In this document: one piece after another, positions 41,351-62,383 of the stretch
Numbering within the stretch: position 1 is the first letter of the stretch
Layout of the letters: each line of letters opens with the position of its first letter
Assembly (NCBI GenBank): GCA_958295725.1
Contig: OY282368.1
Span: 1,282,124 to 1,346,123 of the forward strand
Length of the DNA: 64,000 bases
Reading direction: 5' to 3'
From: an uncultured Alphaproteobacteria bacterium
GTDB lineage: Bacteria > Pseudomonadota > Alphaproteobacteria > UBA2966
Notes under the pieces: generated by a model
Databases searched by the model: none
What the model saw: the letters and a program-made list of their open reading frames with translations, nothing else
Told to the model about the DNA's origin: nothing
Program-made: the position numbers and the translations under genes

Positions 41351-41375
41351 CCTCTGTTAACGACAGCGACGGATT

Positions 41376-41405
41376 TTGACCTTGCGGCGTCGTTCGTGGT
41401 AGGAT
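41376..41405 (+). promoter_or_regulatory. Candidate sigma70-type promoter of SLP gene copy 1 (TTGACC-N18-TAGGAT)
   Basis: The same element with TAGGGT as the -10 is present at 56531-56560 upstream of copy 2. Its position just upstream of the 13-bp repeat tract would put the repeats in the 5' UTR. Confidence 0.3.
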
Positions 41406-41419
41406 AAGGTTGCGAACTT

Positions 41420-41549
41420 CACGGGGCCTCTTCACGGGGCCTCTTCACGGGGCCTCTTCACGGGGCCTCTTCACGGGGCCTCTTCACGGGGCCTCTTCAC
41501 GGGGCCTCTTCACGGGGCCTCTTCACGGGGCCTCTTCACGGGGCCTCTT
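41420..41549 (+). repeat. Simple sequence repeat (CACGGGGCCTCTT)x10 between the putative promoter and the RBS of the SLP gene
   Basis: Exactly 10 perfect 13-bp units. The RBS GGAGG lies 9 nt after the tract and the ATG is at 41573. Confidence 0.9.
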
Positions 41550-41572
41550 CAGGAAGCGGAGGTCCTGTTCCG

Positions 41573-42904
41573 ATGTTCTTCAGCAGTGCTCGTGGATTCG
41601 TCTTGTCGGCGGTGGCGTGCGCCCTCGTTCTCATTCTCTCCGGCTGCGGCGGCGGCGGGAGCAGCAGCGGCACCGCGCCTCCTCCGGGACGGTCGATGGC
41701 GCAACTCGATCCCGAGCCGACGCCGGCACCAACGCCAACGCCGGAGCCGACGCCGCCGGAGACGCTGAGTAATGCGCTGGCTGTTGAAACGATACAGCCG
41801 GGTGCCGTGCTGGGGATCGAGAAGGCCATCGGCGCCGAACCAAAGGCCAGCAGCAGCACGCTGTCTAGCATCACACAGTCTTCGAATACGGACGCTGATG
41901 GTGTCACGACCGACCAAGTGGAGATATTCGCGGAGTACGGAGCCACCACACCCCGTTTTTCGGTGACAAACGGAGCCGAATGGGCCATCGGCATGGATGA
42001 AGGAAATCCCATGGCGATACAGGGCTTCGACCAATCTTGGAAAGGTGCTCAGTTGATCAACACTCATCTCTCCCATATCTCCGGGGGCACCTTGTACGTC
42101 GATGCCTACACGAACATCGAGGCGCCGACGACGGAGAATGTGCCGGGACCTTCCCAAATAGTAAGGAGAGGTGATACAGTAGGCGGTGTCTTCTTTTCCA
42201 TACCGTCCTCCGGAACTCTGAACGGCGAAGATGGCGAGTTTGAGTGTGGCTCTTCTACATGTTCTTTCAACTACCGGCGGGACTTCTCCGGCCGCGGCCC
42301 CGTTACCGATATCTCAGGGACCGTCTTATTCACCCCAGCCTCTACAACGCGCACAGACACCGACTATCTGGCCGGTGGGGTCTGGCTGTTCGTTCCCGAC
42401 ACTGCGTCAAGCACCGACGACTACGTATTCGGCGTCTTTGCGCGCGGCGAGGATCCTTTCAATCAAGGGCGGATCATGGCTCTAACCGGCAGCGCGACGT
42501 ATATGGGGGGCGCCACCGGGAAATATTCGCAAAAGGATGGTAGTTCGACCACCATCGGATCCTTCGAGGCCGACGTTAGCCTGACGGCCAGCTTTGGTGC
42601 TGCCGACAGCCTTGGTACGATCAGCGGTACGATCACCGATTTCGAATTGGACGGTGAGGCGACCGCGGGCAGCTTGACCTTGGGAGAGGCCGCTATCGGC
42701 TCCGCCAACAGCGGCTTCTTCAAGGGTGCGGTGGGCGGCTCGGATGGCTCCCGCACATACGCTGGCAAGTGGGGTGGCCAGTTCTTCGGCAACGGGGCGG
42801 CCAGTACCGACCATCCGGGATCGGTTGCCGGGACGTTCGGCGCACAGTCCACGGACGAGGCTGTGAACTACATCGGCTTTTTCGGCGCGGACCGGGAGCA
42901 GTAA
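41573..42904 (+). CDS. Surface lipoprotein with TbpB/fHbp-like C-terminal beta-barrel (putative Slam/T11SS cargo), copy 1
   Basis: Lipobox LILSGC followed by a Gly/Ser/Pro-rich linker. Handle-domain-like motifs (ATYMGGATGKY, FEADVSLTASFG...LGTISGTI). C-terminal barrel signature YAGKWGGQFFGNGA...GSVAGTFGA...YIGFFGADREQ. Confidence 0.65.
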   Translation: MFFSSARGFVLSAVACALVLILSGCGGGGSSSGTAPPPGRSMAQLDPEPTPAPTPTPEPTPPETLSNALAVETIQPGAVLGIEKAIGAEPKASSSTLSSITQSSNTDADGVTTDQVEIFAEYGATTPRFSVTNGAEWAIGMDEGNPMAIQGFDQSWKGAQLINTHLSHISGGTLYVDAYTNIEAPTTENVPGPSQIVRRGDTVGGVFFSIPSSGTLNGEDGEFECGSSTCSFNYRRDFSGRGPVTDISGTVLFTPASTTRTDTDYLAGGVWLFVPDTASSTDDYVFGVFARGEDPFNQGRIMALTGSATYMGGATGKYSQKDGSSTTIGSFEADVSLTASFGAADSLGTISGTITDFELDGEATAGSLTLGEAAIGSANSGFFKGAVGGSDGSRTYAGKWGGQFFGNGAASTDHPGSVAGTFGAQSTDEAVNYIGFFGADREQ

Positions 42905-42971
42905 CGCGATATCCAATCTCGCAACCCCGAACGGGAGAAGGGCGGCCCCGCGGCTGCCCTTCTTTTTCTCC

Positions 42972-44327
42972 ATGATGACGATGAAGTGGATCTGCGCCCT
43001 CGCCGTCGCCGTTCTGGTCCACGCTTCGGCGCTCGCCGCTTCCGACCGTTCCCATCTGTCCTCCGACCCCCGGGTCAACGACGCCCGGACACTCATCGAA
43101 AGCGGCCGCTTCGCCGAGGCGCTGGACGTCCTGCGCCCGCTGGCGCCGGACCATCCGGACCGGACGGACGTCCTCTTCCTCCTCGGTCTGGCCGCCGTCG
43201 AGGCCTCCCGGCGGGCCGACACCGGGGAAGCGGAACGGACCGTCCTGCTCGACGAGGCCATCGCCGCGCTCCGCGCCATCCTGATCGATCGGCCGGGTCT
43301 CGTGCGCGTGCGCCTGGAGCTGGCGCGGGCGTTCTTCCTCAAGCGCGAGGACGACCTCTCGCGCGAGCATTTCGAGCGCGTGCTGGCCGGCGGGCCGTCG
43401 CCGGCGATGGTCGCCAACATCCGCCGTTATCTGGCGGAAATGCGGGAGCGCCGGCGTTGGAGCGCCTGGTTCGGCGCGGCGCTGGCGCCGGACAGCAATC
43501 TCAACACGGCCTCGGACTCGGACGTCATCTACATCCGCGGCCTGCCGTTCCGCCGCGGGGCGGACGCGGGCCCCCGCTCGGGGGTGGGCGCCATCCTCTG
43601 GACGGGCGGCGAATACCAGCACCCCCTCGGCCAGCGCCTGCGCCTGCGCGCGGGCGCCGACCTCGCTCGCCGGGAGTATGCCGGAAGCGGCTTCGATCGG
43701 ACCTTTCTGTCCGGGCACGTCGGGCCGCGCTGGCTGGCGGACGCGAAGACCGAGGCGAGCCTGCTCGCCAGCGCCCGGCGCAGCTGGAGAGCCGGGGCGC
43801 CGGAGAGCCATGACCTCGGCGCCCGTCTGGAGGGCGAGCGCCGCTTCTCCCGACGCGTGACGGCGAGCGCGCGAACCTCCCTGCACTGGCGCGAATACCG
43901 GAGCGACCGACGCCTCGACGGGCCGGTTTTCGATCTCTCCCTGGGCGCCGCATGGCTCGCGACGCCGACCGTGCGGTTCGACGCGACGCTCGGCTATGCG
44001 CGTGAACGTCCGGGGCGAACGGTCTGGCGCAATACCAGCCGATGGGCGCGGGCCGGTTTCTCCATGGCGCTGCCGCTGGGCTTCACCGTCGGCGTCGGCG
44101 GTGAGTTGCGCCGGACAAGGTACGAGGGCCGGTCGCCGTACACGCTCGGCGGCGCGTCCCGCGAGGACCGGGTCCGGGTGCTGCGGATCTCGACGTTCAA
44201 TCGGGTCTTCACCCTGTACGGATACAGTCCGCGGCTCGTGCTGGCGAACGAGGCGCGCGACTCCAACGCGCAATTGCACGACTACAAGCGCAATCGCGCC
44301 GAATTGCGATTCGTGCGGCAGTTCTAG
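42972..44327 (+). CDS. Slam (surface lipoprotein assembly modulator)/DUF560 outer-membrane protein, type XI secretion, copy 1
   Basis: Signal peptide. N-terminal TPR-like periplasmic region. DUF560 onset motif RWSAWFGAALAPDSNLN. An alternating beta-strand-rich C-terminal half ending in the aromatic residue (RFVRQF) typical of OM barrels. Confidence 0.7.
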   Translation: MMTMKWICALAVAVLVHASALAASDRSHLSSDPRVNDARTLIESGRFAEALDVLRPLAPDHPDRTDVLFLLGLAAVEASRRADTGEAERTVLLDEAIAALRAILIDRPGLVRVRLELARAFFLKREDDLSREHFERVLAGGPSPAMVANIRRYLAEMRERRRWSAWFGAALAPDSNLNTASDSDVIYIRGLPFRRGADAGPRSGVGAILWTGGEYQHPLGQRLRLRAGADLARREYAGSGFDRTFLSGHVGPRWLADAKTEASLLASARRSWRAGAPESHDLGARLEGERRFSRRVTASARTSLHWREYRSDRRLDGPVFDLSLGAAWLATPTVRFDATLGYARERPGRTVWRNTSRWARAGFSMALPLGFTVGVGGELRRTRYEGRSPYTLGGASREDRVRVLRISTFNRVFTLYGYSPRLVLANEARDSNAQLHDYKRNRAELRFVRQF

Positions 44328-44520
44328 GCTCAGGATTCATAACCGGACCTGCTCATCCGCACGACTCGTCCAGCGACGGGAGTGCCGATCATGGACTTCA
44401 TCGCCGTCGGGTCCATCCATACTCCCCCCTGAAAGGGGGAGGAGTGGCGCACCGGACATTGCCGTCTTGACGATTCCGGTGTCGCGCGGGTGGAATCGCC
44501 GTGGGGTCTCGCTCCCGGTC

Positions 44521-44555
44521 CCCGGCGTGGCGATCCGCACAATCCGCACACCGTC
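44521..44555. repeat. Solitary copy of the terminal variant of the 45-bp repeat unit
   Basis: CCCGGCGTGGCGATCCGCACAATCCGCACACCGTCGG. It matches the last unit of the array at 39424-39917, including the ...CCGTCGG ending. Confidence 0.85.
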
Positions 44556-44973
44556 GGACCCTGCGAGCGTTCCAGATAAAACCACTATATGTCGTATTTC
44601 CTGTGTCATGAATATCGATATATGGTATCGTCGAGGGGGTTATCGAAACGATCCTCGCCGAGTCGCGGGACTATGGCCCCCTCCCGACTTCCTCCCTGAC
44701 CAAGGGGGAGAAGTATGAACGGATCCGGCGGATGAACCCCGGCTCGGCACTCCACCGACCGCGCGGCCGACGAGTTCCCAACGTCCCGCATGTAGCGAAC
44801 CAGGACATGCAATGGACAAATACACCGAGTTGGTGCTATCGATCGGACGCTGAAGGGAAGGGAGGCCCGATAGTCCCGGAAATCGCGAATCCGGCGGCGG
44901 TCGTGCGAACCGCCGCCCGGGAACCCGAACCCGACGCCGGAACGTGGCTACCGAAGATTCAAGGAGTACCCTC

Positions 44974-45699
44974 ATGACGGAGACGACCACCCTCGCATCC
45001 CAGGCGGAGTCGCTGACGTCGCTGCTGGGGTTGTCCGACCCCCCGCTCGCCATCACGTTCTCGTCCGAGGCGCCGGACGGCGTGAAACGTTTCGACGCCG
45101 CGATGCCGGAGCCGACGCCGGACGGTCGGACGGGCCGGGTCGCCGCGAGCTGCGTGTTCTGGATCAAGGCTCGCGATCGGACATTCACGACGGTGGCGGA
45201 GGACCACGGCAATTGCAGCGTCGGTTCGCTGACCCACGGGTTCAAGACCTTGGAGGAGGCGGCGGCCGGCGCCGACGTAGCGGCGCTGGTCGAGTCGGAG
45301 TGGGTGACGCCCGACGTGTTCCCGCACATCCCGACGGTGAACGAGAAGCCCGGGTTCGTCACCTACGGCCCCCTCGCCGAATCCCCGGCCGCCCCGGACG
45401 TCGTGTTCCTCCGGCTGAACGGCAAGCAGGCCATGATGCTGCATGACGCCTGGCCCGACCTTCGCGTCGAGGGTAAGCCCCAGTGCCACATAATCCCCAT
45501 CGCCAAGGAGGGCGGCGAGGTCGCGGTGAGCGTCGGCTGCATGTTGAGCCGCGTTCGCACGGGCATGAGCAACAACGAGGTCACGTGCGCCATTCCGACG
45601 ACCAGGCTGGGCGAGCTCCTCGAGCGTCTCGAGACGGCGAACGCCGCCGACATGAAGGTGGCGGCCTACGCCGCGGCGGACGCCAAACGTTTCGCATAG
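44974..45699 (+). CDS. DUF169 (COG2043, ArCR-type) domain protein
   Basis: About 240 aa. Conserved Cys/His pattern (ASCVFW...HGNCSVG...CHIIPIA...VGCMLSR). RBS AAGGAG. Confidence 0.5.
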   Translation: MTETTTLASQAESLTSLLGLSDPPLAITFSSEAPDGVKRFDAAMPEPTPDGRTGRVAASCVFWIKARDRTFTTVAEDHGNCSVGSLTHGFKTLEEAAAGADVAALVESEWVTPDVFPHIPTVNEKPGFVTYGPLAESPAAPDVVFLRLNGKQAMMLHDAWPDLRVEGKPQCHIIPIAKEGGEVAVSVGCMLSRVRTGMSNNEVTCAIPTTRLGELLERLETANAADMKVAAYAAADAKRFA

Positions 45700-45791
45700 G
45701 GCCCGGGCCCGCCTTCGCCCCCCCTGGGAGCACGGAGCGGAAGCCGCGTCTCCGGAGCGTCCGTCGAGGCCGGAGAAGGGGGGGAGGCGCG

Positions 45792-46784
45792 ATGTCCGAC
45801 ACGATTCCCGTCATTGACGTCGCCGACTTCATGGCCGGCTCGGCGCGGGGATTGGAGGACGCCGCGCGTGGGGTGCGCGAGGCCCTGACGACGGTCGGCT
45901 TCTTCGTCCTCACGGGACACGGCGTGCCGTGGACGCGGATCGACAGGGCATTCGACGCCGCCGCGCGGCTGCACGCCTTGCCCATGTCCAGGAAGCTCGC
46001 CCTGAGGATGAACGAGCACAACAACGGGTACATGGCCCTGGGCCATTACGCGGTCTGGACGTCGGAGGTGAACGACAACGACCGGCCCGACCTGAACGAG
46101 GCTTTCTTCGTCCGGCGCGAACGGCCCGACGACGACCCCGTGTACGCGTCGGGACGGCGTTTCCTCGGGCCCAACCGATGGCCCGACGAGGACGACCTGC
46201 CGGGATTCCGCGCCGAGATCCTCGCCTACACGGGCACCCTCGAGGCGCTGGCGCGCCGCTTCCTGCCCGTCGCCGCCCGGGCTCTCGACCTCCGGCCGGA
46301 CTGGTTCGACGGGTTCTTCGCGGACGCCTACTACATCCTGCGCCTGTCCCATTATCCCCCGGTGGAGGCGGAGACCAACCAGTTCGGGATCGCGCCGCAC
46401 ACCGACGCCAATTTCCTGACATTCCTGCCGCTCGCCGACGTTCCCGGGCTCCAGGTGCGTATGCCCGGCGGCGAATGGAAGGACGTGCCCCGCGTTCCCG
46501 GCGCCTTCGCCGTGAATTCCGGCGACATCGTGAAGCGTTGGTCGAACGGGCGCTTCAGGTCGACCCCGCACCGGGCGCTGCCGCCGGTGGGCCGGGACCG
46601 CTACGCCCTGCCGTTCTTCTTCGGCCCGGACTGGGACGCGACCATCGAATGCCTGCCGGGTTGCGGCGGGCCGGACGATCCGCCGCGCTGGCCGGCGATC
46701 ACTTACGGCGAGTGGATGACGGGCTGGTACGACGCCAACTACGACCACAAGGTCCAGGAACGGGCGACCGCGCGCCGCCACTGA
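45792..46784 (+). CDS. 2-oxoglutarate/Fe(II)-dependent oxygenase (isopenicillin-N-synthase-like)
   Basis: HxD...H facial-triad context (APHTDANFLTFL ... RFRSTPHRA) and an N-terminal DIOX_N-like region (IPVIDVADF). Confidence 0.7.
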   Translation: MSDTIPVIDVADFMAGSARGLEDAARGVREALTTVGFFVLTGHGVPWTRIDRAFDAAARLHALPMSRKLALRMNEHNNGYMALGHYAVWTSEVNDNDRPDLNEAFFVRRERPDDDPVYASGRRFLGPNRWPDEDDLPGFRAEILAYTGTLEALARRFLPVAARALDLRPDWFDGFFADAYYILRLSHYPPVEAETNQFGIAPHTDANFLTFLPLADVPGLQVRMPGGEWKDVPRVPGAFAVNSGDIVKRWSNGRFRSTPHRALPPVGRDRYALPFFFGPDWDATIECLPGCGGPDDPPRWPAITYGEWMTGWYDANYDHKVQERATARRH

Positions 46785-46873
46785 GTTTCCGTTCCCGGCT
46801 CCGGCTCCCGGGTTCGTCCTTGCGGTTCCCGCGGCGCGCGGATTATCAAGATCGCCGACGGGAGGGACCGCGT

Positions 46874-47800
<927 letters not shown>

Positions 47801-47804
47801 ACCG

Positions 47805-49331
47805 GTGACGGACGCCACGGCGCCGCCTCCGTCCGCTCCCGGGCCGTTCCATGTGCGGGGCGCGCTGAAGGAGGCCGGCCTCGCGGCGTTCGTCATGCTC
47901 GGCCTGAGCCTCGCCCTGATCGGGGCGCGCATCGACGACGTGTCCGGTGGGTTGGCGGTCCGGTGGCGACCGTTCGACGTCCTCGCGGCCGTCGTCGTGG
48001 CGTTTCTCGGGCGGCTCGGTCTCGCGTTCCTGCGCGCCGGCCGTCCGGCGCCCGTGGCGCTGGCCTCGGGGCTGTCCTGCGCGGCGCTGGCGCCGTTGCT
48101 GGCAGTCTCGGCGACCGGCGGCGGTGCGGCGGACTGGGCGCGGACGGCGCTCCCGTTCAGCGGTTTCGCCGTCAACGTCCTCGTTCTCGTCGTCGTCGTC
48201 GTCCTGGCGTTGCGCGCCGGGCTGGCCTGGCGCTTCGGCGCACGGGCCGGCGCGAGAGCGAGAGCGGGCGCGCCCGGGGCGGAGACGATGGACCGGCTCG
48301 CGTCTGTGGCGCGGCGCGCCGCCGTCCACGCCGTTCCCGTCCTTCTCCTGGCGGCGGTGCTCTTCCCGTTCCTGCCCTTCGCCGACCGCCGCATCCTCGA
48401 CATCGCCATCCTCGTGGTCACCTACGTCATGCTCGGCTGGGGACTGAACATCGTGGTCGGGCTGGCCGGCCTCCTCGATCTGGGATACGTCGCCTTCTAC
48501 GCTGTCGGCGCCTACGCCTACGCCCTGCTGGCGACGGAAATGGGCCTCGGCTTCTGGCTCTGCCTGCCGTTCGCCGGCGTCATGGCGGCGCTGGCGGGCG
48601 TGCTTCTGGGGTTCCCGGTGCTGCGCCTGCGCGGCGACTATCTCGCCATCGTCACGCTCGGTTTCGGCGAGATGATCCGCATCGTCCTGCTGAACTGGTA
48701 CGAGGTCACGAACGGCCCGGACGGCATCTCCGGCATTCCGAAGCCCACGTTCTTCGGCCTCCCGTTCGTGCGCTCTCCGCCGGAGGGTACAGAGTCGTTC
48801 CACACCTTCTTCGGGCTGGCTTACGCGCCCATCGACCGGATCGTCTTCCTCTACTATGTGATCCTGGCGATGGCGCTGATCACCAACCAGTTCACGTTAC
48901 GGATCCGCAAGCTGCCCGTGGGCCGCGCCTGGGAGGCTCTGCGCGAGGACGAGACGGCCAGCCGGTCGCTCGGGATCAACCCCCGCAACACCAAGCTCAC
49001 GGCGTTCGGCATCGGCGCGATGTTCGCCGGTTTCGCGGGATCGTTCTTCGCGACGCGCCAGGGCTTCATCAGTCCGGAGAGCTTCGTATTCATCGAATCG
49101 GCGGTGATCCTGGCGATCGTCGTGCTCGGCGGCATGGGAAGCCAGGTCGGCGTGGTGCTCGCCGCCGTCCTGCTGATCGGCCTGCCCGAGATATTCCGGG
49201 ATCTCCAGGAATTCCGGATGCTGGCGTTCGGGGCCACCATGGTGTTGATCATGACCTGGCGGCCACGCGGGCTCCTGGCCCATCGCGAGCCCACGATCCG
49301 CCTGTCCGGGAAGGGAGCGGTCAGGCGATGA
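47805..49331 (+). CDS. livM: Branched-chain amino acid-type ABC permease (LivM-like), second operon
   Basis: 508 aa. Long N-terminal extension followed by the LivM core ([31 protein letters not shown]). Confidence 0.85.
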
Positions 49332-50227
49332 CGACGGCGCCCGATACCACGGAGCCGGCCCGGCCGTTCTCGCCGCCGCAGCGGCCGCTGCTCGACGTCG
49401 AGCACCTGACGATGCGGTTCGGTGGCCTCGTGGCCGTCGACGACGTCTCCTTCGCCGCCGCGCCGGGGGACATCACGGCGATCATCGGACCCAACGGGGC
49501 GGGCAAGACGACCGTGTTCAACTGCCTGACAGGCTTCTATCGGCCATCGGTCGGGCGCCTCGCGCTGCGCGGGAACGGGCGCGAGTACCTGCTCGAGCGC
49601 ATGGAGTGCCACGACATCGCCCGGGCCGGCATGGCGCGGACGTTCCAGAGCATCCGGCTGTTTCCGCGGATGTCCGCGTTCGAGAACCTCGTCGTCGCCC
49701 AGCACAACAAGCTGATGCGGGCGTCGGGGTACACGGTGTTCGGACTGCTGGGGACGCGGAGCTACGCGGAGGCGGAGGCCGGGGCCGTGGAGCTCGCCCG
49801 GTACTGGCTGGAGAAGATCGGGCTGGTGGACCGCGCGGACGACGACGCGGGCAACCTCGCCTACGGACAGCAGCGTCGGCTGGAAATCGCGCGGGCGATG
49901 TGCACGGAGCCGCTGCTCCTCTGCCTGGACGAGCCCGCAGCGGGCCTGAACCCGCGCGAGTCGGCGGAGCTGGAGGAACTCCTGCTCTTCGTCCGGGAAC
50001 GGCACGACGTCGGCATCCTGCTGATCGAACACGACATGAGCGTGGTCATGAAGATATCCGATCGCATCGTGGTCCTCGATCACGGGCGGAAGATCGCCGA
50101 CGGAACGCCGGCGGCGGTCCGCGGCGCCCCGGCCGTGATCCGCGCTTATCTCGGCGAGGCGGACGGCGCCGACACCGACACTCATACCCGCGCGGACACC
50201 CGCCGGGACGCGGGCATGGGCGCGTGA
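49328..50227 (+). CDS. livG: ABC ATP-binding protein (LivG-like), second operon
   Basis: ATGA overlap with the preceding gene. Walker [10 protein letters not shown]. Confidence 0.85.
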
Positions 50228-50970
50228 TGCTCGAGGCGACCGGTGTCGAGACCTTCTACGGCAACATCCAGGCGTTGCGCGGGGTCGACGTCTCGATCCG
50301 GCGGGGAGAGATCGTGGCGCTCATCGGGGCCAACGGCGCCGGGAAGTCGACGTTGTTGATGACGATCTGCGGCAATCCGCGCGCGGCCTCCGGGCGCATC
50401 GTCTTCGAGAGCCGGGACATCGCATCCCTGCCGACCCACGAGATCGCGCGGCTCGGGATCGCGCAGGTGCCCGAGGGGCGTCGGATCTTTCCTCGCATGA
50501 CGGTGCTGGAGAACCTCCAGATGGGTGCGACGGTCGCCGAAGAGGCCTGCTACGAGGAGGACGTCGAGCGCGTCTTCGAGCTCTTTCCCGTCCTTCGCGA
50601 GCGCCAGCGCCAGCGCGGCGGCACGTTGTCCGGCGGCGAACAGCAGATGCTCGCCATCGCCCGCGCCCTGATGAGCCGGCCCAGACTCCTGTTGCTGGAC
50701 GAACCCTCTCTCGGCCTCGCGCCGCGTCTCGTGGCCCGGATCTTCGAGACCATCGGGGAGATCAACGAACGCCAGGACGTGACGATCTTCCTCGTCGAGC
50801 AGAACGCCCATCACGCCTTGCGTCTGGCGCACCGGGCCTACGTGATGGCGAACGGCGCCATCCTGTTGACGGGGACGGGACGGGAGCTGCTCGACAACGA
50901 CGAGGTCCGCGCGGCCTACCTGGAGGGCGGGGCCGGGAAGACGGATGTCGAACGGGGAGGGGACGTGTGA
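50227..50970 (+). CDS. livF: ABC ATP-binding protein (LivF-like), second operon
   Basis: Overlapping start. Walker A GANGAGKST, signature LSGGEQQ. Confidence 0.85.
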   Translation: MLEATGVETFYGNIQALRGVDVSIRRGEIVALIGANGAGKSTLLMTICGNPRAASGRIVFESRDIASLPTHEIARLGIAQVPEGRRIFPRMTVLENLQMGATVAEEACYEEDVERVFELFPVLRERQRQRGGTLSGGEQQMLAIARALMSRPRLLLLDEPSLGLAPRLVARIFETIGEINERQDVTIFLVEQNAHHALRLAHRAYVMANGAILLTGTGRELLDNDEVRAAYLEGGAGKTDVERGGDV

Positions 50971-51329
50971 TGGAGGGGCCGCCCGACGCGAACCTCGGTG
51001 TCTTCCTCGTCGTGACCGTCGCGGTCATGGGCTTCGCCGCGTACATGACGGGGCAGGCCTGCGCGAACACCTGGCGTCCCGTCGGACACGTGGTCTTTTA
51101 CTGCTTGCTGCTGGGTTTGGCGGACCGGTTCCTGGTCTTCGCCCTGTTCGAGGGCGAGTTGCTGTCGGTCGGCGGCTACCTCGTCGATACCGCGGTGCTG
51201 GTTGCCGTCGCGCTGCTCGCCTTCCGGCTGAATCGGACCGCGCGCCTGACGACGCAGTATCCGTGGCTTTACGAGCGTGTGGGGCTTCTGTCGTGGCGCG
51301 ACCGGCCCCGGCACGGCGACGGCCCGTGA
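50970..51329 (+). CDS. Small 3-TM membrane protein commonly trailing Liv operons (DUF6867-like)
   Basis: Start overlaps the livF stop. Three hydrophobic helices. Family assignment is from memory only. Confidence 0.4.
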   Translation: MEGPPDANLGVFLVVTVAVMGFAAYMTGQACANTWRPVGHVVFYCLLLGLADRFLVFALFEGELLSVGGYLVDTAVLVAVALLAFRLNRTARLTTQYPWLYERVGLLSWRDRPRHGDGP

Positions 51330-51506
51330 CAACGACATGGACCCGTTCGACAAGACGGCGAGGATCCCGGGCGCGGGCGGCAACGGCGTGACGAACGCGG
51401 AAGCTCCCGGTTCGACAGGGCGCGTCGCGGCGTGCTACATTGCGAGCGTCACGAGCGTCGATACCCACCGGAAAAGTAAGGCGCCCCGGAGATCGAGGAG
51501 CACGTC

Positions 51507-52592
51507 ATGTCCGCAGCCGAGGAATTGACCGATTACGCCATGCCGCCCGACGAGATCGCCGGGCCGAGCGTCTGGTACGGCCCCGAAATGGCCGCACGGG
51601 AAGACACGTGGCTTCGTCCCTTCGACGAGAAGGAGCTCGCCGAGCTCGACGCCGCCATGCGGGACGTGAAATCCCGAGGTCTCGACATTCTGGACATCGA
51701 CAGAAACGCTTTCCCGTTACCCACGCTTTCGCCGGTCTTCGACGAGATCCGTCGCGAGCTGCTGCGCGGCCGCGGTTTCGTCCTGATGCGCGGAATCCCG
51801 GTGGAGCGCTATTCCATCGAGGAATCGGCGATCGTCTATTTCGGCATCGGCTCGCACTTCGGTCTCTCCCTGCCGCAGAACGCCAGGGGGCACGTGCTGG
51901 GACACATCAGGGACGTCGGCCGCCATGAGTTCGATACCAAATCGCGCATCTACCAGACCAACGCGCGTCAGACCTTCCATTCGGATACCGCAGACATCAT
52001 CGGCCTTATGTGCCTGCATCCGGCCAGGAAAGGCGGGGAGTCGGCAGTCGTCTCGTCCGACACTCTCTACAACGAGGTGCGCCGCCGCCGTCCGGACCTG
52101 CTGCCGCTGCTCTTTCAGCCCTACGCCACGGACTGGCGTAACGAGGCGCCGGACGGAGGCGAGGGCCATTACTCCGTGCCGGTCCTCAGTTGGCACGCGG
52201 GACGGCTCTACTGCCGGTACGCGCGGCGCTACATCGATTCGGCCCAGCGTTTCGATGACGTGCCGCCGCTGACGGAGCGGGAGGTCGAGGCACTCGATTT
52301 CTTCGACTCGGTGGCGGACGATCCCGCCATCCACCTGAAGATGGAGTTCAAGGCGGGGGACATTCAACTGATCCACAACCACCAGACCCTGCACGACCGC
52401 ACCGAGTTCGAGGACTGGCCGGAACCCGAGCGCAAGCGCCACCTGTTGCGGCTGTGGCTCAACTGCGTGGACGGCTTGCCGTTACCGGAATCCTTGCGGC
52501 CCCGCTATCGCGAGCTCGAAATCGGGAGCCCGTTGCGCGGCGGCCTCCGCGTCCCCGGCCAAGTCCTTGTCGCGCCCCTCGAGGCGGAGTAG
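51507..52592 (+). CDS. TauD/TfdA-family Fe(II)/2-oxoglutarate dioxygenase
   Basis: HxD motif (FHSDTAD) and a distal His (HNHQTLHDR) in a TauD-like fold. 361 aa. Confidence 0.7.
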   Translation: MSAAEELTDYAMPPDEIAGPSVWYGPEMAAREDTWLRPFDEKELAELDAAMRDVKSRGLDILDIDRNAFPLPTLSPVFDEIRRELLRGRGFVLMRGIPVERYSIEESAIVYFGIGSHFGLSLPQNARGHVLGHIRDVGRHEFDTKSRIYQTNARQTFHSDTADIIGLMCLHPARKGGESAVVSSDTLYNEVRRRRPDLLPLLFQPYATDWRNEAPDGGEGHYSVPVLSWHAGRLYCRYARRYIDSAQRFDDVPPLTEREVEALDFFDSVADDPAIHLKMEFKAGDIQLIHNHQTLHDRTEFEDWPEPERKRHLLRLWLNCVDGLPLPESLRPRYRELEIGSPLRGGLRVPGQVLVAPLEAE

Positions 52593-52678
52593 CTCCCGGC
52601 CGCGGCAGACGGCCGAAACGGTCGGACAGCGGTCTCCGGGGCGACGCCGACGCGGAGGACGGGGAAGGGGGATATCCG

Positions 52679-54127
52679 TTACTCCAGCCCCACCCAGACG
52701 CTCTTCTGCTGGAGATACTCGCGGATCATGGCGGAGCCCGACTCGCGCCCGAGACCGGATTTCTTGTAGCCGCCGAAGGGCATCATCGGGGACTGCTGGC
52801 GATAGGTATTGATCCACACCGTTCCGGCCTGCACGCCACGGGCGACCCTGTGCGCGCGGCCCAGGTTCTCGGTCCAGATACCGGCGGCGAGACCGAAGTC
52901 GATGTCGTTGGCGATACTCACGGCCTCGTCGTCGTCCTTGAAGCGGATGACCGAGAGGACGGGACCGAATATCTCCTCCCGCGCCACGCGCATCCCGTTG
53001 TCGACGCCGTCGAACACGGTGGCCTCGATGAAGCGGCCGTCGCCGCATTCCGGCCCGGCGCCCCGGTTGCCCCCGCACACGAGCTCCGCGCCCTCCGCCT
53101 TGGCCACATCGACGTATTCCATGATCTTGTCGAACTGCGAGGCGGTGGCCACGGGACCGAGTTGCGTGTCTTCACGGGTCGGGTCGCCCATCTTCCGGGA
53201 GGCGGCGACGGCGGCGATGGCGGTCACGACCTCCCTGTGGATATCCTCCTGGATCAGGAGGCGCGAGCCGGCGATGCAGGTCTGGCCGGTCGAGGCGAAA
53301 ATGCCGGCGACGACTCCGGGGACGGCTTTTTCCAGGTCCGCGTCGGCGAACAGGATATTGGGGGACTTGCCGCCGAGCTCCAGCGTCACGCGCTTGAGAT
53401 GCCTGGCGCCGGCCTCGTAGACCCGTGCGCCGGCCTCGGTGCTCCCGGTAAAGGCGATCTTGGCGGTCAGCGGGTGCTCGACCAGCGCCATGCCCGCTTC
53501 GCCGCCGCCGCCGGTGACGACGTTGACGACACCTGCCGGAAACCCGGCCTCCTCCACGAGACGCATGAAGACGAGGGTCGATGTCGAGGTGTTGCTGGAG
53601 GGCTTGACGACCATGGTGTTGCCCGCCGAGAGCGCCGGGGCGAGCTTCCATGACAGCAACCTGAGCGGGGAGTTCCACGGCGTGACGGCGACGCAGACGC
53701 CGACCGGCTCGAAGCGCGTGTAGTTGAGGAACCTGTCCTCGTCGACGGGAACGGTGTCGCCCTGGACCTTGTCAGCGAGACCCCCGTAGTAACGATACCA
53801 GCCGGCCATGGTGCGCATCTGGTTACGAGTCTCGCCGATGACCTTGCCGTTATCGCGCGTTTCGGCCTGGGCGAGTTCCTCGGCGTTCTCCAGGACCAGA
53901 TCGCCCAGCCGGCCCAGGAGCCCGCCGCGGTCGGACGCCTTCATCTTCGGCCACTCGCCGGTCGTGAAGGCGCGGTGCGCCGCCCGCACGGCCCGGTCGG
54001 CGTCCGTGGCGTCGGCCTTGGCGACCCTGGCCCAGGGCGCGGCGGTGTAAGGGTTGTCCGTGTCGAACCAGGCGCCGGCGGCGGCCTCGCGGCGCTCGCC
54101 GTCGATATACATGCCGAAGTGTTCCAT
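52679..54127 (-). CDS. NAD(P)-dependent aldehyde dehydrogenase
   Basis: ALDH catalytic motifs LELGGKSP and FASTGQTCIAGSRLL (catalytic Cys) and the C-terminal PFGGYKKSG motif. Confidence 0.9.
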   Translation of the reverse strand: MEHFGMYIDGERREAAAGAWFDTDNPYTAAPWARVAKADATDADRAVRAAHRAFTTGEWPKMKASDRGGLLGRLGDLVLENAEELAQAETRDNGKVIGETRNQMRTMAGWYRYYGGLADKVQGDTVPVDEDRFLNYTRFEPVGVCVAVTPWNSPLRLLSWKLAPALSAGNTMVVKPSSNTSTSTLVFMRLVEEAGFPAGVVNVVTGGGGEAGMALVEHPLTAKIAFTGSTEAGARVYEAGARHLKRVTLELGGKSPNILFADADLEKAVPGVVAGIFASTGQTCIAGSRLLIQEDIHREVVTAIAAVAASRKMGDPTREDTQLGPVATASQFDKIMEYVDVAKAEGAELVCGGNRGAGPECGDGRFIEATVFDGVDNGMRVAREEIFGPVLSVIRFKDDDEAVSIANDIDFGLAAGIWTENLGRAHRVARGVQAGTVWINTYRQQSPMMPFGGYKKSGLGRESGSAMIREYLQQKSVWVGLE

Positions 54128-54206
54128 GAGGTCGCGTCTCTCCGTCGTGGATGTTCTCGTGAATTCGGGTGCGGATCGACCGTGTAGCGGAGTATGTCGG
54201 CTTCAT

Positions 54207-54329
54207 CCCATCGAGCGCATGTTCGACAGAATCAAGGACTGGCGGCGTATCGCCACACGATACGACCGATGCGCCCACACCTTCTTCAGCGCCATCTGCA
54301 TCGCCGCTACCGTCATCTTCCGGTTATGA
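54207..54329 (+). pseudogene. C-terminal remnant of an IS5-family transposase
   Basis: IERMFDRIKDWRRIATRYDRCAHTFFSAICIAATVIFRL matches the conserved IS5/IS427 transposase C-terminus (ERFFxxIKxxRRIATRYDK). No upstream catalytic domain was found. Confidence 0.6.
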
Positions 54330-54579
54330 GTCCCGAGCCCGGATTTCCGACCGGACCCGACGTCCGGTCAACCCGTGATTCCATTTCTTGAAAATTCGCC
54401 AGGGCAACTGCATGGATGGGAATATATCGAAAAGGGTTGGGGGCCGTTCATGGCCGGGGGAGGGGCCTGCTCCGCGGTCGCCGATAGTCTCCTCCTTCCC
54501 GCGTTCCTCACGATGGGCCGCCGTTCCCGACCGCGCCGCGGGCGGCCGGGCCGCTCTACGCGGCCGCCCGCGGCGCGGC

Positions 54580-54882
54580 CTACGGAAGCAGCTTGAGCAA
54601 GGCGAAGGTCAAGCCGGCGTTGGCGAGCACGATGCCGACGGCAATCCCGACGAACCGGACGGTCACGCGGGTTTCGAGGGCGGCAAGGTCGGCTTTCGTC
54701 GCCATCTTGTCCTCGATGTGTTCGATCTTGTCTTCAAGGTGGGCGATGTCGGTCTTGGCGGCGACGCCTCCGGTGATGGCGTCGCGAACCGTCGCCACGA
54801 CGCTTTCGGCCTGGCGTTCGTCGAACCCGGCTTCCCGGAGCGCCTTGGCGGCGGCGCAGGTGTCGAAGGCGGTAGCGGTCAT
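54580..54882 (-). CDS. DUF1640-like small coiled-coil/TM protein, tandem paralogue 1 of 5
   Basis: N-terminal MTATAFDTCAAAKALREAGFDERQAE, a central coiled coil, and C-terminal TM GIAVGIVLANAGLTFALLKLLP. Confidence 0.5.
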   Translation of the reverse strand: MTATAFDTCAAAKALREAGFDERQAESVVATVRDAITGGVAAKTDIAHLEDKIEHIEDKMATKADLAALETRVTVRFVGIAVGIVLANAGLTFALLKLLP

Positions 54883-54909
54883 GCGGCGGTTCCCCCGGTC
54901 GGGCGCGGC

Positions 54910-55173
54910 CTACGGAAGCAGCTTGAGCAAGGCGAAGGTCAAGCCGGCGTTGGCGAGAACGATGCCGACGGCAATCCCGACGAACCGGACGGTCATGCGG
55001 GTTTCGAGGGCGGCAATCTCGATCCTGAGGTCAGCTTTGGTCGCCAGTTCGTTCCGGTCGGCGGCAGTGGCGTCGCGCATGACGGCGACGGCGGCTTCGG
55101 CCTGGCGTTCGTCGAACCCGGCTTCCCGAAGGGTCTTGGCGGCGGCGCAGGTGTCGAAGGCGGTAGCGGTCAT
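54910..55173 (-). CDS. DUF1640-like small coiled-coil/TM protein, tandem paralogue 2 of 5
   Basis: Same N- and C-terminal modules with a different central segment. Start trimmed to MTATAF. Confidence 0.5.
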   Translation of the reverse strand: MTATAFDTCAAAKTLREAGFDERQAEAAVAVMRDATAADRNELATKADLRIEIAALETRMTVRFVGIAVGIVLANAGLTFALLKLLP

Positions 55174-55199
55174 GCGGCGGTTCCCCGGTCGGGCGCGGC

Positions 55200-55451
55200 C
55201 TACGGAAGCAGCTTGATGAGCGCGACGACGGCGGCGACGATGGCTCCGGCCTGCATCCACGAGGCGCGGTACATCCGCGCTTCGAGAGCGGCAATCTCGA
55301 TCCTGAGGTCAGCTTTGGTCGCCAGTTCGTTCCGGTCGGCGGCAGTGGCGTCGCGCATGACGGCGACGGCGGCTTCGGCCTGGCGTTCGTCGAACCCGGC
55401 TTCCCGAAGGGTCTTGGCGGCGGCGTAGGTGTCGAAGGCAGTGGCGGTCAT
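55200..55451 (-). CDS. DUF1640-like small coiled-coil/TM protein, tandem paralogue 3 of 5
   Basis: Same N-terminus. The C-terminal TM has diverged (WMQAGAIVAAVVALIKLLP). Confidence 0.5.
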   Translation of the reverse strand: MTATAFDTYAAAKTLREAGFDERQAEAAVAVMRDATAADRNELATKADLRIEIAALEARMYRASWMQAGAIVAAVVALIKLLP

Positions 55452-55506
55452 GCGGCGGTTCCCCGGTCGGGCGCGGCCTACGGAAGCAGCTTGAGGGCGG
55501 CGCCGA

Positions 55507-55758
55507 TCAAGCCGCCGGCGGAAGCAGCTTGAGCAAGGCGAAGGTCAAGCCGGCGTTGGCGAACACGATCCCGATAGCGACCTTGAGCATGTCGGCCTTG
55601 AGATCGGCGAGATCGGCCTTGTCGGCCTTGGTGGCCATCTTGTCTTCAAGGCGGGCGATGTCGGTCTTGGTGGCGACGCCTTCGGCCTGGCGTTCGTCGA
55701 ACCCGGCTTCCCGGAGCGCCTTGGCGGCGGCGCAGGTGTCGAAGGCGGTGGCGGTCAT
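55507..55758 (-). CDS. DUF1640-like small coiled-coil/TM protein, tandem paralogue 4 of 5
   Basis: Same N-terminus and a shortened central region. A 3' duplication scar (LKLLPPAA plus a vestigial repeat at 55490-55520). Confidence 0.45.
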   Translation of the reverse strand: MTATAFDTCAAAKALREAGFDERQAEGVATKTDIARLEDKMATKADKADLADLKADMLKVAIGIVFANAGLTFALLKLLPPAA

Positions 55759-55784
55759 GCGGCGGTTCCCCGGTCGGGCGCGGC

Positions 55785-56024
55785 CTACGGAAGCAGCTTG
55801 AGCAAGCCGACGATGAGCACGGCCTGTCCGGCGGCGACGGCGAAGACGAAGCGGACCAGCCGGGTTTCGAGGTTGGCGAGATCGGCCTTCGTCGCCAGCG
55901 TGTCCCGCTCGGCGGCAGTGGCGTCGCGCATGACGGCGACGGCGGCTTCGGCCTGGCGTTCGTCGAACCCGGCTTCCCGAAGAGTCTTGGCGGCGGCGTA
56001 AGTGTCGAAGGCGGTGGCGGGCAT
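55785..56024 (-). CDS. DUF1640-like small coiled-coil/TM protein, tandem paralogue 5 of 5
   Basis: MPATAFDTYAAAKTLREAGFDERQAE... The track ORF extends to 56090, and the start is uncertain. Confidence 0.45.
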   Translation of the reverse strand: MPATAFDTYAAAKTLREAGFDERQAEAAVAVMRDATAAERDTLATKADLANLETRLVRFVFAVAAGQAVLIVGLLKLLP

Positions 56025-56186
56025 GAAGCGATCATGGGCCATCACGGGTCCTTGCGCAAGTTCCGCACGGTCCCGCAACATCCCGTCCATGCCCGTTTCA
56101 GATTGTTGGCGAAATTGGGGGTGTAATCCGATGTCCAGAAGAAATATCGCATTTTTCTGTGGATTTCAGGACATTTAGCGGCGGAT

Positions 56187-56230
56187 TCCCAATCCGCAGG
56201 CCGGAGGTTCGAATCCCTCCGGGGTCGCCA
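56187..56230 (+). other. tRNA-Gly(CCC)-like 3' fragment (anticodon arm, imperfect T-arm, acceptor 3' strand plus CCA) lacking a 5' half
   Basis: GCGGA-TTCCCAA-TCCGC stem-loop with anticodon CCC. GGTTCGAATCC T-loop. ...GGGGTCGCCA at the end. The upstream 30 nt cannot form the D-arm or acceptor 5' strand. Confidence 0.35.
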
Positions 56231-56574
56231 AGCCTCTCCTTCCAGAAACCCTGGAGAAACAGCGACTTTCACGGAACGAGGCCAAAGAAATTGGCTCGAT
56301 TGGCGAATCGCAGGCATGTCCCGGCCGTGGCGGTCGGACATGGCAGCCTCTCCTATATCCGGGGAACCTGAACCACATGCCGCTCGAATACTGAATGCCG
56401 CTTACAGGTCCTGAGCCTGGCGACACACGACCGCACCGGGCACTCGACGGACATACCCCTGCCGAGTACCTTCACTCGCTCACAGCCAATGAGACCCCAT
56501 CGTCTCATATATCCTGAACCAGGACGAATTTTGACCTTGCGGCGTCGTTCGTGGTAGGGTAGGGTTGCGAACTT

Positions 56575-56605
56575 CACGGGGCCTCTTATCTTCACGGGGC
56601 CTCTT
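56575..56605 (+). repeat. Two copies of the CACGGGGCCTCTT unit (separated by ATCTT) upstream of SLP gene copy 2
   Basis: Same promoter-proximal context as 41420-41549, but 2 units rather than 10. Confidence 0.85.
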
Positions 56606-56628
56606 ATTAAGAAACAGAGAGGTTCCGA

Positions 56629-58164
56629 ATGTCTATCAACGGTACGAGTGGATTCGTCTTGTCGGCGGCGGCGTGCGCGATCGTGCTGTCCGGCTGCGGC
56701 GGCGGCGGCGGCGGCTCGTCGCCGGCGAAAGAGATCGCGGATTTGGCCGAAGGCGGCCGTCTACAGATCATGAAAGCCGCCGGGAACGACCCCGCGCCGA
56801 GCGGCAGCGTGATGCAATCCTCGAATGCGACGGACGGCGTGACGAAGGACAGCATCGGCGTCATGGCAAAGCACGAGAACGGGCAGGTGACGTTCGCCGT
56901 AGACTACGACGACGGCTCCGGGGGAGACCCCGAGATAACGATGGGCACGGCGGACGACCTGCGCGCGAGGTTCTCCGGCGACGTCATTTGCGAACAGTGC
57001 GACGCCAAGCCGTTCAGCGGCAACGCCAGGTGGAACGGCGCCGAACTGCGAAAGTCGTACGGGGACGGAACGTTGTGGGTCGATGTCTACACGGATATCG
57101 AGAAACCGACGACGGAGACGGTGACGACCGGCGGCGACGCTCCTCAAACCGGCGATGGCACCCGGGATGTTCCTACCGGGACGCGGATATCGTTTACGCA
57201 ATTCATCGGAGGCCGCGTCGACATCGATAGGCCAGGTGGGTTTAGCACTCTTGGGACACTGGATGGCGCTATGGGTACGTTCACGTGCCCGTCGAGTTGT
57301 GTTGTCAGTAACCACATCGTGGCAGGGGGGAGTTGGACCTTCACCCCCACCCGGCCGCCGGGAGCCCTTGACGTTCTAAGCAACGCGGCCGGCGTCGTCC
57401 TTACAGGGAACTTCGATGAGACTCGAACTGACGGCACCTTCAACGGCGCGGCGGGATACTTCAAATGCCTGTCCCGGTTGACGGGAAGTTGCGGTCGTGG
57501 CGTATCGAACGGCCGCACTACGCTCAGTGGCGAGTGGGTATTCATTCCCACCACCCCCACGCCAGCAGGTACGACGACGACACGCACCGTACAGGATGCC
57601 GACTATCTGGCCGGCGGAGTCTGGTTGTACGTTCCGGAGAGCGGCGACGCTTATCAGTTCGGCGCCTTCGTAGACGGCGGCCAGCCCTTTCTCCAGAGCC
57701 GTATCGAGGGCCTGACGGGCACCGCGAAGTATGCAGGAGACGCGACCGGTATCTACGTGGAAAAGGAATCCTCCACCGCCGCCGCCGAGATCGGATATTT
57801 CGACGCGGAGGTGACGTTGACGGCCGACTTCGGCACGAATGCCGAGCTGGGAACGATCCGTGGAGTCATCGATAACTTCGTCGAGGAGTCGACCGACGAG
57901 GCCATTGTCGGGGATCCGGAGGTGACGCTGCGGCAGGCTGACATCGGGTCCGCGGACAGCGGTTTCTTCAAGGGCAAGACGACGGCAACCCTCTCCGGCA
58001 GAGAGTTCACCGGCAAATGGGGTGGCCAGTTCTACGGCAACGGCGCCACCGCCACCGCCCACCCCGGTTCCGTCGCCGGCACGTTCGGCGGCGCGGCGCC
58101 GGAGAACGCCGACGACGGTTACGAAGCCTCGTTCGTAGGGGCGTACGGGGCCTACAAACAGTAA
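56629..58164 (+). CDS. Surface lipoprotein with TbpB/fHbp-like C-terminal beta-barrel (putative Slam/T11SS cargo), copy 2
   Basis: Lipobox VLSGC plus a Gly-rich linker. Its central region differs from copy 1. Conserved handle motifs (AKYAGDATGIY, FDAEVTLTADFG...LGTIRGVI) and C-terminal barrel (FTGKWGGQFYGNGA...GSVAGTFGG...FVGAYGAYKQ). Confidence 0.65.
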   Translation: MSINGTSGFVLSAAACAIVLSGCGGGGGGSSPAKEIADLAEGGRLQIMKAAGNDPAPSGSVMQSSNATDGVTKDSIGVMAKHENGQVTFAVDYDDGSGGDPEITMGTADDLRARFSGDVICEQCDAKPFSGNARWNGAELRKSYGDGTLWVDVYTDIEKPTTETVTTGGDAPQTGDGTRDVPTGTRISFTQFIGGRVDIDRPGGFSTLGTLDGAMGTFTCPSSCVVSNHIVAGGSWTFTPTRPPGALDVLSNAAGVVLTGNFDETRTDGTFNGAAGYFKCLSRLTGSCGRGVSNGRTTLSGEWVFIPTTPTPAGTTTTRTVQDADYLAGGVWLYVPESGDAYQFGAFVDGGQPFLQSRIEGLTGTAKYAGDATGIYVEKESSTAAAEIGYFDAEVTLTADFGTNAELGTIRGVIDNFVEESTDEAIVGDPEVTLRQADIGSADSGFFKGKTTATLSGREFTGKWGGQFYGNGATATAHPGSVAGTFGGAAPENADDGYEASFVGAYGAYKQ

Positions 58165-58204
58165 CGCCGCAGGCCGTCCCGAAACGGAAAGAAGGCATCG
58201 CGAG

Positions 58205-59578: not shown

Positions 59579-59813
59579 GCTCAGGACTCATAACCGGACC
59601 TGCTCATCCGCAAGACTCGTCCAGCGACGGGAGTGCCGATCATGGACTTCATCGCCGTCGGGTCCATCCATACTCCCCCCCTGAAAGGGGAAGAAGTGGC
59701 GCACCGGACATTGCCGTCTTGACGATTCCGGTGTCGCGCGGGTGGAATCGCCGTGGGGTCTCGCTCCCGGTCCCCGATGCGGCGACCCGGCGGGAGGCCG
59801 GAAGGAGGGACGG

Positions 59814-62357: not shown

Positions 62358-62383
62358 CGGGATTCGACCGGAATGGCCGGGGT

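Follow-up and report, generated by a model that had tools for sequence, protein, structure and literature searches.

The 64,000-nucleotide (nt) stretch of DNA analyzed here (the window; contig OY282368.1 of an uncultured alphaproteobacterium, GTDB lineage UBA2966) contains two operons, 15 kb apart, each of which joins the gene of a predicted surface lipoprotein (SLP1 or SLP2) to the gene of a Slam, a type 11 secretion outer membrane protein. Positions are those of the window, and all elements of the two operons lie on the forward (+) strand. Both operons have the order promoter, repeat-containing leader, cargo gene, and Slam gene. The first comprises SLP1 (41573 to 42904, 443 aa) and Slam1 (42972 to 44327), which starts 67 nt past it, and the second comprises SLP2 (56629 to 58164, 511 aa) and Slam2 (58205 to 59578, 457 aa), which starts 40 nt past it. 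An earlier note on this DNA, made from the sequence alone, had given the same coordinates and lengths for the two lipoprotein open reading frames (ORFs), which are indeed intact, and had described the cargos as a mosaic of conserved ends and unrelated middles. In our reading of the alignments, the real mosaic is a homogenized translocon and 5' region around a divergent cargo, which is fast-evolving in SLP2.

Both Slam proteins match Pfam family PF04575 (E = 9e-16 and 3e-15) as well as TPR_19, TPR_16, TPR_14, and TPR_Slam, and Slam1 has a TPR region in its N-terminal part and a DUF560/SlipAM barrel. SLP1 consists of a lipobox (LILSGC25GGGG, Cys25), a Pro/Thr linker (aa 26 to 64), a helix and N-terminal beta domain (aa ~65 to 205), one Cys module (aa ~205 to 262), and the handle end with an 8-stranded barrel (aa ~262 to 443). 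In SLP2, the lipobox (IVLSGC23GGGG, Cys23) is followed by a helix (aa 32 to 52), an N-terminal beta domain (aa 56 to 167), two Cys modules (aa ~200 to 262 and ~263 to 322), and an 8-stranded barrel (aa ~360 to 511). AlphaFold2 models built from the family alignment (predicted local distance difference test scores of 84.5 and 88.3) show the helix, the N-terminal beta domain, the Cys modules, and eight long C-terminal strands. By these models, SLP1 and SLP2 are TbpB-fold lipoproteins, with a predicted handle and barrel matching those of TbpB, fHbp, HpuA, and hemophilin.

Similarity between the two cargos extends beyond their ends. As had been claimed, a common signal peptide context (GFVLSA.ACA.V..LSGCGGGG) is present in both (local alignment z = 12 versus shuffles), and the C-terminal ~180 to 190 residues are 51 to 53% identical (z = 47). 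BLASTP aligned only the C-terminal 258 residues (SLP1 205 to 442 with SLP2 260 to 511, 45% identity) and missed the N-terminal region. A Smith-Waterman alignment of SLP1 31 to 205 with SLP2 31 to 260 scored 128, compared with 35.5 ± 5.9 for shuffled sequences (0 of 500 as high; z = 15.7), so the statement that nothing is shared between the ends did not hold. The motifs QSSN..DGVT.D and GTL.VD.YT.IE.PTTE.V are common to SLP1 and SLP2 in a global alignment and nearly invariant in a 115-sequence family alignment. BLAST puts N-terminal identity at 28 to 29% (206 aa), and the N-core columns of the family alignment put it at 40%; pairwise alignment shows a graded, indel-rich divergence in place of conserved ends with unrelated middles. 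Three features account for the length difference: SLP1 has a Pro/Thr-rich linker, and SLP2 has both a Cys loop of 15 residues and a second copy of a Cys module of ~55 residues (G..NG..G.F.C ... W.F.P; z = 7; hhalign probability 96%, E = 3e-9). SLP2 is the longer protein mainly because of this second copy. A crude motif count gave 0 to 3 such modules per family member. The 15-residue insertion (SLP2 aa 119 to 132, ~56983 to 57024), which contains a CxxC pair (VICEQCDAKPF) and is not in SLP1, is the sole internal low-confidence segment of the AlphaFold2 model.

In the N part, divergence between SLP1 and SLP2 is 2.5 at synonymous sites (dS) and 0.66 at nonsynonymous sites (dN); in the C part, the values are 1.5 and 0.37. 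In the Cys module, dS is too high to be corrected, and dN is 0.68. Because dS is saturated in the barrel too, the barrel appears to be as old as the rest of the cargo and just more constrained. Across the family, the barrel is the most conserved part, with an identity floor of 45 to 55%. Among 197 family proteins (17,453 pairs), N-core and barrel identities co-vary (r = 0.81), with N-core identity about ten points lower; outliers are few and are mostly due to one protein with a partial C-domain. This co-variation indicates that swapping of whole N-lobes or domains is not the usual mode of change. In three other lineages, compared at dS of 0.25 to 0.40, dN/dS (omega) was 0.29 to 0.66 in the N part, 0.20 to 0.38 in the barrel, and 0.23 in the Slam. 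The gradient from conserved barrel to variable N part would thus be explained mainly by differential constraint together with module insertions and deletions. The earlier note's picture of a retained scaffold with a diversifying N-lobe therefore stands in part, in that the barrel is most conserved and the non-barrel region diversifies between strains, and fails in its proposal of cassette-like exchange, which would not be usual.

A windowed comparison of DNA identity between the two operons, with exact base counts per segment, gave a different picture for the flanks. The block upstream of SLP1 (41365 to 41416) is 88% identical (46/52 nt) to its counterpart at 56520 to 56571. A sigma-70-like promoter, TTGACC-18-TAGGAT, lies at 41376 to 41405 (promoter scan, 1 hit versus 0.3 expected), and a promoter-like element, TTGACC-18-TAGGGT, at 56531 to 56560 within the SLP2 block was read from the sequence and is below the scan threshold. 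Signal peptide codons 8 to 29 are 90% identical (54/60 aligned). Identity is about 54% of aligned bases in the cargo body and 49% in the intergenic region plus Slam signal peptide, and it reaches 99.0% (1478/1493) in a tract that covers the mature Slam and about 200 nt downstream. This tract runs from 43033 to about 44524 to 44537 on the Slam1 side (43033 to 44537, counterpart 58284 to 59789), and the steps in identity at 43033 and 44537 are sharp.

Over the mature part, Slam1 and Slam2 differ at 8 synonymous sites and 1 nonsynonymous site (dS 0.023, dN 0.001), and the two proteins differ in the signal peptide and in one mature residue. This dS is similar to that between orthologous genes of the two strains compared below (0.007 to 0.028), and it represents a ~65-fold drop from the adjacent SLP barrel (1.5). 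In the signal peptide, dS between SLP1 and SLP2 is 0.34 (28 codons). Among 5.8 billion proteins, Slam1 and Slam2 are by far each other's nearest relatives, the next nearest being 78% identical. Barrel and Slam identities are correlated across 24 SLP-Slam pairs (r = 0.60), and the window pair is an outlier (0.52 versus 1.00). The body of SLP1 is closest (80% identity) to P0059, a protein encoded on another contig (L080), whose signal peptide and upstream region are unrelated to those of SLP1; the 5' end of SLP1 instead matches that of SLP2 in its own genome. Given that Slam tract and 5' end are alike and the cargo bodies apart, we infer that both flanks were homogenized within the genome. With Slams one mature residue apart, one translocon sequence must accept both divergent barrels. 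Slam1, Slam2, and the Slam2 of the sister strain show a few mutually incompatible sites (43238, 43457, and 43465), suggesting repeated exchange.

Concerted evolution by gene conversion is known from duplicated bacterial genes such as tufA/tufB and the opa genes. The window operons resemble these cases in having near-identical paralogues with sharp tract edges and strongly diverged adjoining sequence. They differ from them in what is homogenized, here the translocon and the regulatory 5' end, with a divergent cargo in between.

Strain-level change was assessed with a 40-kb metagenomic contig of a sister strain (L079), which is syntenic with window positions 47382 to 64000 and 98.2% identical over 16.7 kb; dN and dS were estimated by the Nei-Gojobori method. 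Against a background of 0 to 3 mismatches per 200 nt, 41 fall at 57118 to 57314 and 13 at 56721 to 56917, both within SLP2. The former, a hypervariable patch, corresponds to aa ~164 to 229 and covers the first Cys module. For SLP2 as a whole, dN is 0.062 and dS is 0.036 (omega 1.72; 67.7 nonsynonymous and 13.3 synonymous differences), compared with dN of at most 0.003 and omega of 0 to 0.39 for eight neighbor genes (pooled, 12 nonsynonymous and 36 synonymous differences; Fisher P = 2.7e-11). Slam2 has an omega of 0.09. The excess of SLP2 omega over 1 has a binomial P value of 0.037. The barrel of SLP2 is not spared (14 nonsynonymous changes and 1 synonymous change), and aa 166 to 260 show a dN of 0.22 and a dS of 0.12. 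The patch is only 63% identical between the strains, compared with 60 to 62% to distant family members, and a search for a donor found no family member with a patch closer to that of either strain than the two strains are to each other. The raised dS and low strain identity suggest that a short diverged segment was imported on top of selection. In the SLP1 lineage, too, the Cys module is the fastest part (versus P0059, dN 0.25 and dS 0.18). We take the source of selection on SLP2 to be, presumably, the host or phages.

A second kind of variation lies in the leaders. In both SLP genes, a 13-nt tandem repeat, CTTCACGGGGCCT, follows the promoter block and precedes the ribosome-binding site. Its copy number is 10.4 in SLP1 (41417 to 41551; Tandem Repeats Finder [TRF], 100% matches), 2 in SLP2 (56572 to 56607, with an 18-nt variant unit; TRF and strain alignment), and 7 in SLP2 of the sister strain (L079 9176 to 9269; a 63-nt gap in the strain alignment). 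The predicted RNA fold of the SLP1 leader has a z score of -4.9, and in the predicted folds of both window leaders the last repeat unit pairs with the Shine-Dalgarno sequence. The modeled probability of an unpaired Shine-Dalgarno sequence is 0.02 to 0.03 with an odd number of copies and 0.10 with an even number. An on-off switch between odd and even copy numbers was considered and rejected, as the modeled effect on accessibility is only 3- to 5-fold. The length of the leader repeat probably tunes expression.

Such leader repeats occur throughout the family. A search of 1.03 Mb of related loci plus the window gave 19 non-triplet repeats (unit of 5 to 30 nt, at least 4 copies), 14 of them in the 450 nt that precede an SLP-family gene; this zone makes up 4% of the sequence (binomial P = 3e-16). 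The repeats upstream of SLP-family genes have nine different units. Upstream repeats are seen in many unrelated metagenome-assembled genomes (MAGs), with units of 5, 7, 8, 11, and 19 nt and up to 63 copies, and include those at L002 5713 to 5899, L004 5551 to 5612, L014 5214 to 5460, L027 5069 to 5219, L029 4991 to 5212, L047 5258 to 5572, L050 5423 to 5493, L069 5179 to 5230, and L078 5356 to 5410, among others (locus number and positions within the locus). At several loci, the array starts a few bases after a TTGACA...-10 promoter. A 7-nt unit is present in 21.6 copies at L027 and in 31.7 copies at L029; copy numbers at L005 and L011 are unreliable because of N gaps. We also considered, and rejected, the repeats as a translated part of the SLP. 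At L069 an upstream ATG is in frame through the repeat, with a canonical signal peptide 73 codons later, and at L002 the upstream ORF is out of frame, which indicates that the arrays are leader elements.

Simple-sequence-repeat contingency loci, with repeats in promoters or 5' leaders, are well known from surface protein genes of Neisseria, Haemophilus, and Moraxella. In the SLP operons, likewise, the start codon of a surface protein gene is separated from its promoter by a non-triplet tandem repeat, and the copy number of this repeat differs between close relatives, namely, between paralogous loci and between 98%-identical strains, as in contingency loci. They differ from the known loci in that the units in the family are long (5 to 19 nt), the arrays lie a few bases past the -10 box, in the leader and not in the spacer or coding region, and copy number is predicted to have little influence on how accessible the Shine-Dalgarno sequence is.

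The surroundings of the SLP1 operon bear on how it came to its site. A gene for an ISNCY-family transposase (40107 to 41282, minus strand; NCBIfam NF033594, E = 2.4e-108) abuts the SLP1 promoter block. To the left of this insertion sequence (IS) is a 46-nt tandem repeat in 10.6 copies (39423 to 39909), and a solitary 24-nt core of the same repeat is present at 44529 to 44552, exactly where the SLP1-Slam1 homology tract ends. The IS and the SLP1 operon (about 4.6 kb) are thus bracketed by direct repeat copies. Contig L080 (23 to 1601 and 9183 to 12370), which comes from the sample that also gave the sister strain, has the SLP1-like P0059 gene, followed by a Slam gene that is cut off ~150 nt in, beside a DDE transposase gene; a second Slam on this contig is called as two ORFs. 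The SLP/Slam cassettes on L080 appear to be decaying.

Taken together, we consider it probable that these are two paralogous Slam operons whose cargos are old and homologous from end to end, diverged under differential constraint, and whose flanks were recently homogenized by recombination. SLP1 and SLP2 would have split long ago within one unannotated TbpB-fold family. Purifying selection would have been stronger on the C-terminal handle end and barrel, the part presumed to be recognized by the translocon, than on the N-terminal effector part, and the region between the N part and the barrel would gain and lose Cys-containing hairpin modules; this uneven selection and module turnover would give the cargos their mosaic look. 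Intragenomic recombination, by gene conversion or re-duplication, would have homogenized the flanks of both operons, very recently for the Slam (99%) and less recently for the promoter and signal peptide (88 to 90%), so that one translocon sequence would serve two divergent cargos. The cargo bodies would stay different, with SLP2 at least changing fast through diversifying selection and import of small segments, and expression would be tuned by the length-variable leader repeat. Several points weigh against parts of this account. Conservation of the signal peptide and lipobox is partly functional constraint, and the low dS there comes from 28 codons. An imported segment, in place of selection on point mutations, explains some of the SLP2 hot spot, and the omega above 1 is marginal (P = 0.037), comes from one close strain, and could be partly relaxed constraint. 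The order of events could also be either an old duplication whose flanks were converted later or a recent one in which the cargo body was replaced afterwards.

The latter order, in its strict form a recent duplication of the whole operon to a new site, followed by replacement of one cargo body by a foreign allele without any conversion of the flanks, is a possibility to which we give some, if clearly minor, weight. The adjoining ISNCY transposase and the bracketing repeat copies look insertion-like, P0059 of another contig shares 80% identity with the SLP1 body, and the coupling between SLP and Slam phylogenies is only loose (r = 0.60). A translocated SLP1 operon is a live alternative for part of the history. 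However, the incompatible Slam sites suggest repeated exchange, and the unequal ages of the 5' flank and the Slam tract do not fit a single duplication event. The cassette model suggested by the earlier note, in which unrelated N-lobes, possibly from silent copies, are swapped onto a kept signal peptide and barrel as in pilE/pilS, strikes us as unlikely. Although BLASTP matches only the C-terminal 258 residues, the 5' end and Slam flank are more alike than the cargo body and could guide homologous replacement, and the ~200-nt hypervariable patch with raised dS resembles an imported segment, the N regions are homologous and carry family-invariant motifs, their identity co-varies with that of the barrel across the family, and the saturated dS of the barrel speaks against a younger common scaffold. 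Moreover, tblastn of both SLPs found only the two genes in the window, with no promoterless partial donor copies of the pilE/pilS type.

Decay of one copy, or specifically of SLP2, under relaxed constraint seems quite improbable. Such decay could account for an SLP2 omega of about 1 to 1.7 between strains with replacements in the barrel too, and, on L080, an IS truncates the Slam beside the SLP1-like gene, with a second Slam apparently split. On the other hand, both ORFs are intact with canonical lipoboxes, and the three strain indels all keep the reading frame, which makes decay unlikely and gives no sign of the frameshifts that the earlier note had named as a mark of a pseudogene; there are also no stops among the 81 substitutions, which is weak evidence (P = 0.10). 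The AlphaFold2 models are confident, family-invariant positions are kept, and purifying selection on the partner Slam2 is strong (omega 0.09). A simple ancient duplication under differential constraint, with no recombination, would give the graded identity of the cargos (28 to 40% in the N part and 51 to 53% in the C part) by itself, but it is next to impossible to reconcile with identity boundaries sharp to the nucleotide, and the ~65-fold discontinuity in dS between barrel and mature Slam already refutes it.

As to the class of protein, the earlier note had treated SLP1 and SLP2 as Slam cargo, and we agree: both have the marks of Slam-dependent surface lipoproteins, namely, a lipobox, an adjacent Slam gene, and a predicted handle and 8-stranded barrel. 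Surface export by the Slam is a presumption in both cases; an Escherichia coli translocation assay for Slam-dependent display has been described (PMC5449769, PMC9090332). Known Slam-dependent lipoproteins (the C-lobe of TbpB, fHbp, HpuA, the hemophilins HphA/Hpl, NHBA, and PmSLP) have the same lipoprotein signal peptide, the same gene placement directly upstream of a Slam (TPR plus DUF560) gene, and the same conserved barrel with a variable N-terminal effector region, which is the standard description of this cargo class (PMC5449769, PMC12282271). Because a scaffold plus a variable lobe is already established for the class, the idea in the earlier note does not amount to a new pattern. In contrast to the known members, the SLP family has no sequence-level match to any solved structure, and SLP1 and SLP2 carry about 200 to 300 extra N-terminal residues without a recognized relative, made up of the helix, the beta domain with the QSSN and YVDVYTDIE motifs, and 1 or 2 Cys modules. 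Also unlike the known systems, no TonB-dependent receptor, heme, or iron genes lie beside the operons.

Database searches place the family at the edge of what is annotated. Against the Pfam TbpB_B_D model (PF01298), SLP2 scored 16 bits, below the curated cutoff of 26 (E = 0.018), and SLP1 had no match; a few family members do have a precomputed PF01298 hit. The 115-sequence family profile found no relative among PDB sequences, NCBIfam gave nothing meaningful apart from a spurious low-score match to SslE over the signal peptide and linker, and Foldseek against the PDB gave one significant hit only, to TbpB, with a low template modeling score. We considered the N-terminal beta domain as a second TbpB-like lobe and rejected this at the sequence level (hhalign probability of 0.5% versus the barrel), and the bilobed TbpB/LbpB type, with two handle-barrel lobes and a nearby TonB-dependent receptor gene, was not found here. 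By these searches, the family is undescribed by curated models; the class itself is already known.

A word-indexed protein search detected 228 to 303 members of the family, and the SLP2 N region matched only 28 cluster representatives among 1.84 billion. In contigs from one genome per species, there are 78 family loci, essentially all in MAGs, the closest match being 51% identical; 33 of these loci are immediately followed by a Slam. Taxon labels include Alpha- and Gammaproteobacteria, Nitrospirales, Binatia, and Nitrospinota. Several of these MAGs bear sponge-specific names (Candidatus Poriferihabitaceae and Spongiihabitans), and the name Poriferihabitaceae occurs in a sponge metagenome paper; other bin labels we take to be from sponge metagenome studies. 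The genes are thus mostly from MAGs of a sponge-symbiont type, and the organism of the window is presumably host associated as well. Slam and T11SS are described in the literature as a proteobacterial system. SLP-family genes are also seen in MAGs labeled as non-Proteobacteria, at L016 and L057 (Nitrospirales chromosomes), L009, and L041, L045, and L047 (Binatia). Full Slam genes at L016, L057, and L009 are 58 to 62% identical to those of the window, and those downstream in the chromosome-level Nitrospirales assemblies are 58 to 60% identical. At L071, a 74-nt-period array of 17.6 copies (8462 to 9732) lies ~1.8 kb downstream of an SLP-family gene.

A literature search found, in the library that it covered, no paper linking Slam or T11SS with sponge symbionts. 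The nearest functional analogy is NilB/NilC of Xenorhabdus nematophila, a T11SS outer membrane protein and a lipoprotein needed for colonizing an animal host (PMC9100927, PMC8406197). Both systems pair a DUF560 outer membrane protein with a surface lipoprotein in a bacterium of an invertebrate host, not a vertebrate pathogen (PMC9100927, PMC8406197); we claim no sequence relation, and on our side the host association is presumptive.

We speculate, as a tentative reading that is less probable than not, that these proteins belong to an undescribed T11SS cargo family exchanged among distant sponge symbionts, including Nitrospirales, and behaving like the contingency surface antigens of pathogens. 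Slam/T11SS cargo has been studied almost only in vertebrate pathogens and one nematode symbiont, and in the studied systems it binds host proteins, with some cargos serving as vaccine antigens. Here, the same machinery would carry a cargo family outside every curated model, with relatives that are overwhelmingly sponge associated. Such a reading would draw on the fast, positively selected change in the exposed Cys-module region, on length-variable non-triplet repeats, of at least nine independent units, that immediately follow the promoter, and on a translocon and leader that evolve in concert within a genome in which several divergent cargos are kept. An identical translocon for two cargos, an amino acid burst confined to the cargo, and repeat-laden leaders would be the marks of a molecule facing a discriminating partner. 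If true, this would point to a recognition arms race with host cells or phages at the surface of sponge symbionts, and the family would be a testable candidate for how such symbionts are recognized or escape being eaten or infected. Comparing the SLP1 and SLP2 barrels would also reveal which barrel residues one Slam needs in order to accept different cargos. Three things lend the locus moderate interest: the sign of selection between strains, the flanks that evolve in concert, and the leader repeats seen across the family.

Two features lie upstream of the SLP2 operon. No RNA family (Rfam) or tRNA (tRNA scan) was found in the window, and ARAGORN called no tRNA at ~56160 to 56232. The sequence there looks like a tRNA 3' half, with a T-arm and an acceptor end (...GGTTCGAATCCCTCCGGGGTCGCCA); it is not a gene and may be what is left of an attachment site ~400 nt before SLP2. 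Just upstream of the operon is a tandem array of small coiled-coil genes (54580 to 56090, minus strand; L079 7183 to 8645), with weak Pfam matches of the CCDC90-like/DUF1640 type, ~75% DNA identity among copies, and five genes called in the sister strain.

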